A DNA stretch of 10,004 nt, taken from assembly GCA_031425655.1 (NCBI GenBank), contig JANPJS010000297.1, positions 1-10,004 of the forward strand. The letters run 5' to 3'. A program made the translations under genes and the position numbers. The first letter of the stretch is position 1; the number at the start of each line of letters is the position of its first letter. Positions 1,755-6,975 of the stretch are shown piece by piece. The notes below the pieces were generated by a model that had not been told where the DNA came from, did not search any database, and saw only the letters and a list, made by a program, of their open reading frames with translations. This stretch comes from Abditibacteriaceae bacterium. Its GTDB lineage: Bacteria > Armatimonadota > Abditibacteriia > Abditibacteriales > Abditibacteriaceae.

Positions 1755-1841
1755 TCACTAAATCAGGCCCAATTCGCGCATCTTCGCCAGACTGTCGGGG
1801 CCGTGCGCACTTACGCGCGACTGCACGTTCTTGTCAATTAA
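1755..1841 (-). pseudogene. Displaced or duplicated 3' end fragment of the peroxiredoxin gene (direct repeat of 4851-4934)
   Basis: 1755-1807 matches 4851-4903 at 52/53 nt, and 1808-1838 matches 4904-4934 at 21/31. It translates LIDKNVQSRVSAHGPDSLAKMRELGLI** versus YIDKDVQARVTSHGPDSLAKMRELGLIQ* in the intact gene. No start codon or 5' part is present. Confidence 0.9.
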
Positions 1842-1906: not shown

Positions 1907-4615
1907 TTACGGCACATTCGTCGCAAGCGCGCCATTATGGCCGTCAAAGCTGACGCTGACGGTCGCGCCCGCAGGCAACGCGCCGTCGGGCAACGCGAGA
2001 TTGACGCTGTTGCCTTGCACCGTCACGCTTTGCACCACAACCGCTTTGCCGTTCACGCTGACCGTGAACTTCAAAGCGGCGGCGTTTTGCGGCGCCGTTT
2101 CGGCAAAGGTCAACGTCAAAATCGAACTTGATTCGTTGGCGCTTAGCTCTGCCGCCGGCATTACGCTGGCCGCAGCGACACTGGCCGCAGCGACACTGGC
2201 CGCGGCTCCATCGCTTATGCCGCCCGTCGTCGCGGTTCTGGCCCACGAAGGGCCGCTGTCGTCATTGAGATTTCGGGTCAGGGCTTGCGCTCCCGACACT
2301 TGTTCGCCCGCAAGCGTAGCCAATGCGATTTCGTTGTCGCCGCTGTCTGTCGCACCGCGCGTGGTGGTGAAAGCGAGGCGAGTGCCATCAGGACTGAAGC
2401 ACGGCAACGCGTCGTTTAAAGCATGGAACGAGATGCGCTTCTGACCGGTGCCATCGGCGTTCATCAGATAAATTTCGTTTTGCCCACGAACGCGATTGCT
2501 TTGAAAAACGATGCGCGAGCCGTCGGGACTGTAGTTCGGATTGGTGTCCGTGCCTGCGATGTTGGTCAGGCGCCTCACTGCCGTGCCATCGGCGTTCATG
2601 CGATAAATCTCATGATTGCTCAGGCGATACGAGTGAAACACGATCTGCGTGCCGTTCGCGTTGAAGCTGGGATGGTCGTCCGCACCGTCGTTGCTCGTCA
2701 GACGAGTTTGACCGGTGCCGCCAGCGTTCATGATGTAGATTTCGGGATTGCCGTTGCGCACCGAGGTAAAGACGATTTTGGTGCCGTCCGGCGAAAACTG
2801 CGGCTGATAATCGTCGTAGCCGTTGCTGGTCAGACGCCTGAGGTTGGTGCCGGTGATGCTCATCACGTAAATCTCGCGCTGAAAATCGCGCAGCGAGGAA
2901 AACACGATGAGCCTGCCGTCGCGCGAGATGTGGGGCTGATCGTCCACGGCAGGATTGTTAGTCAGACGCACAGGGTTGGTGCCGTCGGATTTCATGGTGT
3001 AAATCTCGTTGTTGCCGTCGCGCGACGAACTGAATGCGATAATACCCGTCAACGGGCCGGGCGGAGGCAGATCGTCGTTGGTGATGGTGCCTGCGCCCTG
3101 GGCATCAGCAAGGGTAGCGCCGACCGGAGCGGTTAGGTTTACGAAAAACTGCTCGTTGGCTTCAAAGGTGGTATCACCGTTGACGACGACGGTAACGGAT
3201 TGGGTGGTTTGGCCGGCGGCGAAATTCACAGTGCCGGTTTCGGCGATATAATCGGTGCCTGCCGTAGCCGTGCCGTTGGCAGTCGCATATTGAACGCCGG
3301 CGGCAGTCGAAGTAGTTCCACTGCGCGTGACTGTAAAGGTCGCGGTAACCGTGCCGCTGTCGCCTTCAGTCACCGTCACATCGTTGATGCTGAGCGTGGG
3401 CGGAGTGATGGTCACATTCGTCGTGCAAGTAGTCGCCACGTTACCGTCATCTACCTTGATCATGACCTGATGCGGCCCCGGCGTAAAAGTATTGGTAAAC
3501 GTCAGAGTCGCTGAGGTTGTCGGGGCGTTGGCCGGCACCTGATCGGTCTTAACAACGACGCCATCCACACTCCAGGTTACCGTCAGCGCCTCGCCGTCGG
3601 CATCTGCCACCTGAGTTGTCAGAGTTACCGGGTTAGTGGCATTGGTAATGTCCGGCATACAGGTGACTGTAGGCGGCGTATTGGCGGTAAAGCTGCCGCC
3701 CGCGAGGAAAACGTTGGAATCAAGAGACGAATCTTGCGCATCGGCAATCGCCATCTTGATGTGGTTGGTTACGTTGGGGTTTACGGCTGCCACCACGTTC
3801 AAAACCACTGTCAAGCCGTCCATTTCTGTGCAAATCGAACCGCCTCCATCGTCCAAGTCATTGTTGCGGTAAAACTGCGGGTTCTTGGGATTAGTGCCGA
3901 AGGGATTGCCGTTGTTGACGTTGTTGATGGACACCACATTGGTAGTGGTTGTCGTGCTGGGAAGTAAAGCCACGTTAACGCCATTGACAAAGAACCCAAA
4001 AACGTCGTTAAACGAAGCGTTTACAAACTCATTGTATTCATCGGAGCCGAACACATATTGGAAGGAAACGGTGGATTTATTGGGCACGAAGTCGAACTCT
4101 AAAAGGGTGGCATCTTTAGTTTTCGAGGTGGTCAAAGTATCCAGGTCAACATCGCCGGGCAGAGCGTTCACTCCTGTTATACCATCGTCCACATTAGGGC
4201 CTTCAGCGTTCTTAATAGAACCGCTGCTCAGTATAATTCCAGTATCGAAGCCAATATCAGCTCCTCCGGTGAAGGTGCCGGCTGATTTGACTGTGCCGAC
4301 AAACGTAGCATTGCTAAAGGTGACACCCACGCCTAAAATGGCACGCACCAAATCGTCGGGACTGCCGTTTCCGGCCACGTTATCCACAGTTGTGCTCGTA
4401 AGATCGGTTGTGGTCAGCGTGCAGGGTTCCGCAGGCGCACTGCCGGATCGCGCGATCCGGGCCTTCGCAACCGCGTCTGCGTGCGATACATTGCCCGTGG
4501 GGCGCGCGGGATATGCGCCGGCCCCAGTCGAATTGAACAAACCAATACTCAGAAACAAGCTCAGGGCGCACGCGATGCGGGGCGACAAGAGCGAAAACAT
4601 ACGATTTTGCATCAT
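1907..4615 (-). CDS. Secreted modular protein: signal peptide + choice-of-anchor L-type domain + Ig/PKD-like + Calx-beta + TolB/PD40 beta-propeller + small C-terminal beta-rich domain (902 aa)
   Basis: SD-like AGGAG before the ATG and a hydrophobic N-terminus. GIILSSG...LEFDFVP...FQYVFGSDEYNEFV...FNDVFGFFVNG is typical of the choice-of-anchor L domain. LSINDVTVTEGDSG...YATANGTATAGTDY...VNFAAGQT...TFEANEQFFVNL is Calx-beta. About six P-x-F-S-P-D-G-x-x-I-V-F...EIY-x-M-N-A-D-G repeats follow. Confidence 0.95.
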   Translation of the reverse strand: MMQNRMFSLLSPRIACALSLFLSIGLFNSTGAGAYPARPTGNVSHADAVAKARIARSGSAPAEPCTLTTTDLTSTTVDNVAGNGSPDDLVRAILGVGVTFSNATFVGTVKSAGTFTGGADIGFDTGIILSSGSIKNAEGPNVDDGITGVNALPGDVDLDTLTTSKTKDATLLEFDFVPNKSTVSFQYVFGSDEYNEFVNASFNDVFGFFVNGVNVALLPSTTTTTNVVSINNVNNGNPFGTNPKNPQFYRNNDLDDGGGSICTEMDGLTVVLNVVAAVNPNVTNHIKMAIADAQDSSLDSNVFLAGGSFTANTPPTVTCMPDITNATNPVTLTTQVADADGEALTVTWSVDGVVVKTDQVPANAPTTSATLTFTNTFTPGPHQVMIKVDDGNVATTCTTNVTITPPTLSINDVTVTEGDSGTVTATFTVTRSGTTSTAAGVQYATANGTATAGTDYIAETGTVNFAAGQTTQSVTVVVNGDTTFEANEQFFVNLTAPVGATLADAQGAGTITNDDLPPPGPLTGIIAFSSSRDGNNEIYTMKSDGTNPVRLTNNPAVDDQPHISRDGRLIVFSSLRDFQREIYVMSITGTNLRRLTSNGYDDYQPQFSPDGTKIVFTSVRNGNPEIYIMNAGGTGQTRLTSNDGADDHPSFNANGTQIVFHSYRLSNHEIYRMNADGTAVRRLTNIAGTDTNPNYSPDGSRIVFQSNRVRGQNEIYLMNADGTGQKRISFHALNDALPCFSPDGTRLAFTTTRGATDSGDNEIALATLAGEQVSGAQALTRNLNDDSGPSWARTATTGGISDGAAASVAAASVAAASVMPAAELSANESSSILTLTFAETAPQNAAALKFTVSVNGKAVVVQSVTVQGNSVNLALPDGALPAGATVSVSFDGHNGALATNVP
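2166..2206. repeat. 15-bp tandem repeat (~2.7 copies) encoding AAASV x3
   Basis: CTGGCCGCAGCGACA at 2166-2180 and 2181-2195, with a partial copy at 2196-2206. It is in frame in a linker. Confidence 0.9.
2901..3069. repeat. Direct repeat copy 2 (TolB/PD40 constant module)
   Basis: 167/169 nt identical to 1-169. Identity ends abruptly at the Leu codon of LPPPGP. Confidence 0.97.
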
Positions 4616-4850: not shown

Positions 4851-5921
4851 TCACTGAATCAGGCCCAATTCGCGCATCTTCGCCAGACTGTCGGGGCCGT
4901 GCGAGGTGACCCGCGCCTGCACGTCTTTATCTATGTAGCGCAGTATGCCCTCTTTGTCAATTAAAAAAGTCCAGCGTTGCGCGACTTGCTCGATGTGTTC
5001 GACCGTGCCGTAAAGCAGGCACACATTGCGGCCTGTATCGGGGATCAAGGGAAAATCCAGCGCCAGCGCGGCGGCAAAAGCGATTTGGCCGCGATCCTGG
5101 CCGCCGGCATCTACATTACGCGCCGGATCAATGGAAACGGCCCAGATTTGGGTTTCGGCATCTTCAAAGGCGTCTCGCTCTGCACGGAGCGAGCTAAGTT
5201 GATTCGCTCAGCCACCGGTGAAGCACTTGGGGAAAAAGCTGAGCAGCAGGTTTTTCTGGCCGCGCAAATCGGCCAGACGCCGCACATGATTGTTCATGTC
5301 GGCGATAGCGAAATCCGGCGCCCGCTTGCCGACTATAACAAGCGGCGTCGGGTCGCCGATTTTCAGCATCAGCGGCGCTACGTCGGCGATGTCGCGCACC
5401 GACTCGACGCGGCGCAGAAAACCCGCGCGATCAATCGCCACAACCGTCACCGCCGTCTGGCTGACGTTGAAAAGTTTCGCCATCGCGCCGTCGGCATCAC
5501 GCAAGCCAAGTAAGGCCAAATCGGCATTGAGGGCGCCGATGTCAATGCCGATGGCTTTGGAAATCAGCGCCGTGACAACGCCAGCTTTTTTAAGCTGCTC
5601 GGCGGCTTCCATCATTGCCAAAAGCGCTTGTTGGGGCGTGGCGCGCTCGCTGACCAAAATCGGAGCATCGCCGGTGAGAACTAAAACAACGGGGCTTTTA
5701 CCGCGCTGATCGCGCAGGCTCCACAGCTTTTTATCGGCGCCGGGAAACGCGAACTGCGGCGCGAGGTCGGCAATGCGCGGTTCGGCGTTGAGAATCGGCT
5801 TAATGCCTTCGACGGGCGCTTCGAGCGGCGCAGCAGGCGCCGTTTCGGCGGCGTGCGCGAGGCTCAAAAACCCGCCCGCCGCCGCGCCGGCTGCCGAAGA
5901 AAGGAAAACTCTGCGTTTCAT
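4851..5921 (-). CDS. Tat-signal, two-domain peroxiredoxin-like (AhpC/TSA, BCP/PrxQ-type) selenoprotein, ~356 aa; UGA at 5208-5210 read as Sec
   Basis: ORF-track pieces 5208..5930 and 4851..5048 are in the same frame, and the segment between them is open. It reads FFPKCFTGG-U-ANQLSSLRAERDAFEDAETQIWAVSIDP...LDFPLIPDTGRNVCLLYG...RWTFLIDKEGILRY. The TGA sits exactly at the Cys of the Prx PxxxTxxC motif and the conserved Arg (RWTFLID) is present. The N-terminus MKRRVFL...AHA is a twin-arginine signal. An alternative GTG start at 5930 overlaps the upstream stop. Confidence 0.88.
5174..5193 (-). promoter_or_regulatory. Putative bacterial SECIS hairpin
   Basis: The mRNA reads UGA + 14 nt + CUCGCUC-CGUGCA-GAGCGAG. 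This is a perfect 7-bp stem with a 6-nt loop that has G at position 2 and begins after 21 nt following the UGA, consistent with the general bacterial SECIS model. Confidence 0.75.
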
Positions 5922-5926
5922 TAAAA

Positions 5927-6529
5927 TCACCGCTTCTCGTCGTGGAAACTATCGGTATCCACCTGTAACCCGTTGACATTGGTGATGCTCAGCGCATGAT
6001 CGAGATGCACGTCGAACGTAAAGGGGAAACTATCGCTCCAATCGTCCTCATCCTCTACCGAATCGAAGAATATTGTGACACCTACAAGGCCGTCACCCCG
6101 CACCCGGATACCGTCCGTTGTGATCTCTACTGCGTCAACAGTAACCTCGCTCACTTCTTGCGCCACGGTTTTCGAGGCTAAATTATTTAATTCCGCAGGT
6201 GGGCTGTGAATCAATTCGCTCAATAACGCCTCGCTTAGTCCTGCGATGGAAACGCTGACTTCGTGTGGCGGACTGACTATGACTAAACGAAATTCATCGT
6301 ATCCTTCGGACAACGCTTTTTCACGGAGACGCCGCACATGCCCCAGATTTTCCGACAAATGGGCTTTTGCTTTAATTTCAAAAGCAATTTTGCGATTGTG
6401 CTTCGTAGCAACCAGATCATAGCGCGCTGTTCCCATTTCCGATTCTACGACGACTTCGTAGCCCTGCGCCCTCAGTTGGCCTGCTAATTCTTCCGCCTTC
6501 GCCGCTTCCAAATACTGTGTGGCTGTCAT
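5927..6529 (-). CDS. PD-(D/E)XK-fold nuclease domain fused to an acidic C-terminal domain resembling predicted pPIWI-associating nuclease domains (200 aa)
   Basis: The N-terminal E...LRAQGYEV...RYDLVA...IAFEIK matches the Hjc/Mrr-like D...ExK motif. The C-terminal ELNNLAS...V-x-G-x-G-x-V-x-V...SDSFPFTF recalls pP_pnuc-type domains (from memory, unverified). ATGA overlap with the upstream gene. Confidence 0.75.
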   Translation of the reverse strand: MTATQYLEAAKAEELAGQLRAQGYEVVVESEMGTARYDLVATKHNRKIAFEIKAKAHLSENLGHVRRLREKALSEGYDEFRLVIVSPPHEVSVSIAGLSEALLSELIHSPPAELNNLASKTVAQEVSEVTVDAVEITTDGIRVRGDGLVGVTIFFDSVEDEDDWSDSFPFTFDVHLDHALSITNVNGLQVDTDSFHDEKR

Positions 6530-6975
6530 GAGCTGCCTTCCTCAATGGGACCAAAAGTCACTACTTGATGTGGCATGGCACCAATTTTAATATACAAAAT
6601 GTGGGGGTGATTATCGGCGATGAGTTGTTCCATTTCCTCATATTTCTGATTTGGAATTTGCGTTCGCGCGGAGGCGGACAAGGTATAGTCTCGAAAAACG
6701 TCAACTCGCTGCGCCAGACAGAGAACGATTTGCTCATCATCGTCGAAAACACGATTTTTGAACGCATCCAAGATGGGTTTTACAACATTGTCTATATCGC
6801 CTTGAGACTTGGCGTTGCGAAACCACACGACGCGAACGTAGAGCGTGCCTCGCAAAGGCGCTTCTTGCCATACGGCAGAGGCTTCGTGCTGAAGCGCTTG
6901 CTGAAAACTGCGCTTCGACTTTCCACTGCTCTGCGATGATACCGGGCGTAGCGCCGTCACCAAAATGAAAGTCAC
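6526..6975 (-). CDS. rusA: RusA-family crossover junction endodeoxyribonuclease-like protein (149 aa)
   Basis: GDIDNVVKPILDAF...FDDDEQIV is the RusA D-x-D-N-x-x-K-x-x-x-D...DD signature. The GTG start is 16 nt after the recJ stop. Confidence 0.85.
   Translation of the reverse strand: MTFILVTALRPVSSQSSGKSKRSFQQALQHEASAVWQEAPLRGTLYVRVVWFRNAKSQGDIDNVVKPILDAFKNRVFDDDEQIVLCLAQRVDVFRDYTLSASARTQIPNQKYEEMEQLIADNHPHILYIKIGAMPHQVVTFGPIEEGSS

Follow-up and report, generated by a model that had tools for sequence, protein, structure and literature searches.

We analysed a window of 10,004 nucleotides, a single stretch of a contig from an Abditibacteriaceae bacterium, in which a reverse-strand peroxiredoxin gene carries an in-frame TGA at the position of its peroxidatic residue (Table 1). 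The frame contains this one internal TGA, at residue 238, and then stays open for 118 sense codons up to its terminal TGA, as the original prediction had described; the peroxiredoxin motifs AVSID, FPLIPD and RWTFLIDKEG that it had read are all present in frame between 5921 and 4851. The internal codon falls in the Cys column of the PxxxTxxC motif, here P231-x3-T235-x2-U238 (PKCFTGG-U). UGA is also an ordinary stop in this organism: recJ, rusA, the nuclease gene and the peroxiredoxin gene itself end in TGA, again in agreement with the earlier reading, and of the 3104 host-genome frames that stay open for 300 codons or more, 1247 close with TGA, a count that includes shadow frames.

Table 1. Features of the peroxiredoxin gene in the window; residues are numbered along the full-length product.
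Feature	Coordinates	Strand	Basis or detail
Whole gene	4851..5921	-	356 aa with predicted Sec238; ATG at 5921, terminal TGA 4851-4853
Predicted signal peptide, ~residues 1-25, twin-arginine-like RRVFL	5847..5921	-	sequence
Cysteine-free peroxiredoxin-fold domain, residues 44-190	5352..5792	-	profile and fold match; no Cys
Catalytic peroxiredoxin domain, residues 191-356	4854..5351	-	Pfam and fold match
Cys233, candidate resolving cysteine, five residues before Sec	5223..5225	-	87/88 motif homologues
In-frame TGA, inferred selenocysteine 238, peroxidatic position	5208..5210	-	homologue column
SECIS-like hairpin	5174..5193	-	CTCGCTC-CGTGCA-GAGCGAG; 7-bp stem, 6-nt loop CGUGCA, -10.4 kcal/mol
Arg316, conserved peroxiredoxin active-site arginine	4974..4976	-	40/40 aligned full-length proteins

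The RusA-like and restriction-like nuclease genes (5927-6975, reverse strand) have a GC content of 50%, against 60% in their neighbours, and are absent from the interval that separates recJ from the peroxiredoxin gene in all five relatives examined; this segment is likely a recent insertion. On the other side, an 84-nt copy of the 3' end of the gene lies at 1755-1838 (reverse strand), is 87% identical to 4851-4934 and has no other copy in the genome. It sits between two paralogous secreted PD40/TolB-repeat genes (1907-4615 and 3-1454) that share 169 nt at 99% identity, and may have been left behind by an insertion or a tandem duplication.

The gene had been expected to be split or called a pseudogene in standard annotation, and this is what we found: its database entry (P0004) stops at FTGG. 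The same break recurs across the family. Among the 90 non-self database proteins matched, 88 carry the motif; 60 of these read on through the catalytic column with Cys, and 28 are cut exactly before it, with a TGA inferred for most of the latter from protein records only. Recognizing the codon repairs a systematic annotation error, in which 28 of 88 database homologues end at this codon.

A search of the host genome, which is 97% complete, for the selenocysteine machinery recovered selA, selB, selD and the gene for tRNA-Sec (selC), with matches above the family cut-offs. The tRNA-Sec scored 76.1 bits against a Rfam cut-off of 47 and was also called by ARAGORN, and the host selD carries an in-frame TGA of its own. 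The organism can thus read UGA as selenocysteine even though the codon is also one of its common stops. The search for Cys/UGA pairs at the catalytic column likewise found them, both in genomes of the same family and in database proteins. We searched 26 other genomes of the family and obtained a copy spanning the column in 17 of them. Counting the host (G000), five genomes have TGA at the column (the others being G001, G002, G003 and G005), and all five gave matches to selA, selB, selC and selD, with fragmented selA and selB matches in G003 (79% complete). Cys, encoded by TGC or TGT, was present at the column in 22 distinct copies from 13 genomes, and matches to selA, selB or selC were found in none of the 13; one of them, G021, has a selD match alone. 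A further genome, G010 (63% complete), has the Sec genes and gave no full match. Because the genomes are related to one another and not all of them are complete, the agreement between codon and machinery reflects a few events and not 18. In all five UGA relatives examined, recJ lies directly upstream of the gene, which supports orthology. The gene family is expanded in some genomes, with six copies in G016. Named relatives are labelled Abditibacteriaceae; in wider scans of metagenomes and genomes, most of the matches listed were distant peroxiredoxins, and they included one new UGA member of the family (L060).

The TGA is not peculiar to one isolate, nor does it look like an assembly error. 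It recurs in the four other genomes, where the protein is 47-68% identical, in a metagenome contig and in contigs from three other studies, which differ from the window at 2-7 positions near the codon and at none of 5208-5210. A contig from the possible source run also matches 4874-6100 without a mismatch, and it is not an independent observation. The 7 runs listed as containing the sequence included no RNA run, which speaks neither for nor against expression. Relaxed selection downstream of the codon was likewise not seen. From dN and dS against three genomes of the same genus, with dS near 1, we obtained dN/dS ratios of 0.16-0.20 after the UGA, 0.15-0.21 before it within the catalytic domain and 0.20-0.26 in the N-terminal domain. 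Judged by these ratios, the segment after the UGA is under purifying selection with no relaxation past the codon. Together, the machinery, the shared TGA and the selection after it support the earlier proposal of a single selenoprotein of about 356 residues. On this sequence evidence we regard the locus as almost certainly a real selenoprotein gene, with selenium incorporation predicted.

The perfect 7-bp hairpin with a G in its loop was located where it had been predicted, with the loop beginning 21 nt past the TGA. The published bSECIS model asks for a loop of 3-9 nt, a stem of 4-16 bp and a G in the first two loop positions (PMC13188914, Fig. 2 legend), together with a spacing of 16-37 nt and an energy of -7.5 kcal/mol or lower (PMC13188914). 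Checked with our own script against these constraints, as that text gives them, the hairpin agrees with each, having G at loop position 2 followed by U. Among 5000 synonymous recodings, 4 were as stable as the native hairpin and 71 reached -7.5 kcal/mol; at the TGA ends of long frames, a model-fitting hairpin of equal stability occurred in 24 of 1235 cases. The folding of the 80-nt stretch as a whole showed no excess stability over shuffles (z -0.95), so the signal is that of the local hairpin only. A scan for promoters and terminators gave no excess over shuffles.

The hairpin also follows the codon. Its register allows 5-7 of the 7 pairs in the five TGA copies; each of the 22 Cys copies allows 1-4. 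We aligned 10 UGA genes, of which six belong to the family and four encode distant peroxiredoxins from the same phylum. Pairing holds in 85.7% of cells, three pairs have changed on both sides, and 0 of 500 shuffles reach this level; in 17 Cys genes, 34.5% of cells are paired, and 240 of 500 shuffles reached this. The 10-gene test leans in favour of the hairpin, because 5 of 15 TGA rows, distant peroxiredoxins lacking this register, were omitted and the structure was taken from the window's own sequence. With that bias from the choice of alignment, the covariation check proposed for orthologues came out as a hairpin kept in UGA copies and not in Cys copies. A low-depth contig of another organism has the outer C-G pair changed to G-C and keeps the TGA.

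Other recoding candidates turned up in the course of this work. In the host, another gene of the AhpC/TSA family (G000:C65:19433, reverse strand; L231) contains an in-frame TGA (RGEFUPTT) and has a hairpin. An in-frame TGA in a CxxU context, also with a hairpin, lies at G000:C158:6317 (forward strand), and its motif presumably resembles that of AhpD/CMD-like selenoproteins. The genome-wide UGA scan of the host was incomplete in that it missed selD. In a genome of the same order (G027), two adjacent UGA peroxiredoxin domains lie at L040:1192 and 1639, their hairpins in the same register; P0040, P0059 and P0109, from one Armatimonadota record, are two truncated copies next to each other plus a C-terminal half on its own, likely two tandem UGA copies. 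ARAGORN also reported a degenerate-looking tRNA-like sequence with a TTA (stop) anticodon at G000:C70:1011-1089 (reverse strand).

The architecture of the protein had been overlooked in the original prediction. The full-length product is predicted to consist of a signal peptide, a cysteine-free peroxiredoxin-fold domain and a Bcp/AhpE-like domain with a conserved Cys233. At the N-terminus, the RRVFL motif is accompanied by an Ala-rich stretch, and the closest homologues likewise start with MKRRIFL; the N-termini of most homologues look like ordinary signal peptides, and a crude rule for them passed 63 of 90 rows, with the window protein falling narrowly short (hydrophobicity 1.6, cut-off 1.8). 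A structure model with Cys in place of Sec gave two domains (pLDDT 86.4). Pfam AhpC-TSA (PF00578) spans residues 197-330 across the TGA (E 3e-28, 98.7 bits, cut-off 26), the best fold match of the catalytic domain is Bcp1 (3drn; Z 22.9, rmsd 1.9, 149 residues aligned) and the top ten fold matches are all peroxiredoxins; AhpE folds match this domain as well. The peroxiredoxin motif and arginine are complete (P231, T235, U238 and R316), with Arg316 aligning with the Arg of M. tuberculosis AhpE. Cys301 was rejected as a resolving residue, being Cys in just 12 of 40 aligned proteins.

Pfam and NCBIfam gave no match to the N-terminal domain, and pairwise BLASTP between the two domains was weak (E 0.041). 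Its peroxiredoxin fold was settled by profile and fold comparisons: the domain matches the catalytic domain by profile (probability 97.8, E 1.3e-12), and when folded alone (pLDDT 88.6) its best matches are Bcp1 3drn and 5enu (Z 14.8, rmsd 2.6, 131 aligned). In the model it is an inactive-looking duplicate of the peroxiredoxin domain, with the active site lost. Some other members of the family (P0058-P0074) are fused to different N-terminal domains, for example PF07610, PF22544 and PF03412.

The distribution of codons points to repeated exchange between selenium and sulfur. The region upstream of the codon was used for a careful tree of 31 rows of our choosing, on which the stop-or-Cys character needs 4 changes (3-5 over bootstraps), and the strong branches alone force at least 2. 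A single clade of UGA forms was rejected (p-AU 0.0009), a grouping that was tested after the quick tree had been seen. That quick-mode tree, with 83 of 99 rows (16 having been dropped for lacking the N-terminal domain), gave 9 stop/Cys changes. The nearest homologues, P0002 and P0003, have Cys, are 78-79% identical and lie inside a clade with 100/100 support that is otherwise UGA or truncated; this placement suggests that the closest relatives have reverted from Sec to Cys. For peroxiredoxins, Table 1 of a 2006 survey gives five events from Cys to Sec and none in the reverse direction (PMC1794560). The protein is likely a cell-envelope peroxidase of the Abditibacteriaceae, with more than one past switch between sulfur and selenium at its active site. 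P0002 and P0003 offer natural Sec/Cys pairs, at about 79% identity, for asking what selenium gains a peroxiredoxin; the interest of such pairs is that peroxiredoxins are already fast with sulfur.

We consider it highly probable from the sequence features that the gene encodes one 356-residue selenoenzyme, predicted to be exported, that would reduce peroxides in the cell envelope. In the proposed mechanism, SelB would bind the hairpin and bring Sec-tRNA to the UGA, placing Sec at position 238, and the protein would then be exported and its signal removed. Peroxiredoxin chemistry, as outlined in PMC3322552, has the catalytic residue attack the peroxide and then be resolved and reduced. Here, Sec238, held by Pro231, Thr235 and Arg316, would attack H2O2 or an organic peroxide and be converted to a selenenic acid. 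Its resolution by Cys233 as a Se-S bond is a proposition for which we see the case as evenly poised, the alternative being a 1-Sec enzyme. Re-reduction could come from a DsbD-type membrane protein feeding a thioredoxin-like protein of the envelope; the host has a gene for a 662-aa DsbD-like protein on another contig (G000:C40, L220:838-2826, reverse strand), about 2 kb from selD and tRNA-Sec. The first domain is cysteine-free and so incapable of thiol chemistry, and our guess is that it acts as a partner within the same chain or as a surface for docking.

Several other readings of the locus were weighed against this one. On one of them, the TGA arose by nonsense mutation or misassembly, or it divides the gene into two separately translated parts; this would fit the common use of UGA as a stop in the host and the separate annotation of the halves in databases. 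It is contradicted by the sharing of the TGA among genomes with 47-68% identity and in the contigs of three studies, and by a downstream frame that is open and under selection; moreover, the first in-frame ATG, GTG or TTG after the TGA lies 54 codons on, and a break here would cut the fold at the catalytic residue. We find this account scarcely credible. Still less probable, to the point of being negligible, is that a non-standard tRNA reads the UGA as cysteine or tryptophan: all homologues with a sense codon at the column do have Cys, but UGA terminates many host genes, the sole UCA-anticodon tRNA found is the tRNA-Sec over the Rfam cut-off, and the hairpin tracks the UGA.

Two further readings accept selenocysteine and differ in what the gene would do with it. 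The UGA might act mostly as a stop, giving a 237-residue exported protein as the main product and the full-length form only when selenium is plentiful, in the manner of a selenium switch. Read-through at Sec codons is commonly incomplete, and the N-terminal domain folds alone in prediction and is itself under selection (dN/dS 0.20-0.26), but the Cys orthologues make the full-length protein only and keep the same domain, so that its conservation needs no shortened product; we judge such a switch very unlikely. Alternatively, a true selenoprotein might work mainly as a thiol-disulfide oxidoreductase of the envelope, or as a redox relay through Cys233 and Sec238, and not as a peroxide scavenger. 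Cys233 is near invariant (87 of 88) and lies outside the usual peroxiredoxin motif, extra domains such as PF07610 and PF22544 occur in other family members, and folds of the ResA/TlpA type match too, at a lower Z (17.2 for ResA). Against it, the protein retains all four catalytic residues of peroxiredoxins and lacks a CxxC, and its ten best fold matches are peroxiredoxins. This reading is improbable, though less so than the switch, and we retain the exported selenoperoxidase as the preferred one.

The recoding of a peroxiredoxin with Sec is itself already known, as had been stated from the outset, and the predicted exported two-domain form adds to it. Table 1 of PMC13188914 includes a Sec peroxiredoxin (PF00578, TxxU) among the selenoproteins with experimental verification, and PMC5029168 counts Sec peroxiredoxins in 78 organisms. 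The two-domain exported form is absent from the list in the first part of section 7 of PMC13188914, and passages of PMC10298544 added nothing on bacterial Sec peroxiredoxins. Among the open-access papers listed by our searches, none dealt with this motif, with an exported or periplasmic Sec peroxiredoxin, or with selenocysteine in this lineage. Like PrxU of Eubacterium acidaminophilum (NF040737), the window protein has a predicted Sec in place of the peroxidatic Cys in PxxxTxxU, a SECIS just after the UGA and Cys homologues elsewhere; it scores 48.5 bits with that model, below the cut-off of 270, and adds the predicted signal peptide, the cysteine-free domain and the Cys five residues before Sec.

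PprX of Caulobacter crescentus provides a precedent, being a cell-envelope peroxiredoxin supplied by a protein of the DsbD class (PMC3322552). PprX is Bcp/PrxQ-like with a signal sequence; the window protein would resemble it on both counts, and its host has a DsbD-type gene. PprX, as described there, uses cysteines and has only a 20-residue signal extension. Bcp/PrxQ proteins (3drn, 5enu and 5epf) provide the best fold matches (Z 22-23, rmsd 1.9) and the best NCBIfam match, at 52.4 bits below the cut-off of 140 for the Bcp equivalog (NF006960). The window protein differs from them in lacking a Cys five residues after the catalytic one and in having the tandem domain and the predicted signal peptide. 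Among solved structures, AhpE of Mycobacterium tuberculosis (1xxu and 5id2) is closest in sequence (E 6e-17) and has a very similar active-site loop, but it is a single-domain protein with Ala where the family of the window protein has Cys233. Fold thus favours Bcp and sequence favours AhpE in the placement of the subfamily. We tentatively raise the possibility, which we hold to be somewhat doubtful, that the gene represents the selenium variant of a peroxiredoxin class not yet described, distinguished by an envelope location, C-x4-U recycling, a dead duplicate as partner domain and repeated Sec/Cys flips that include a return from Sec to Cys.
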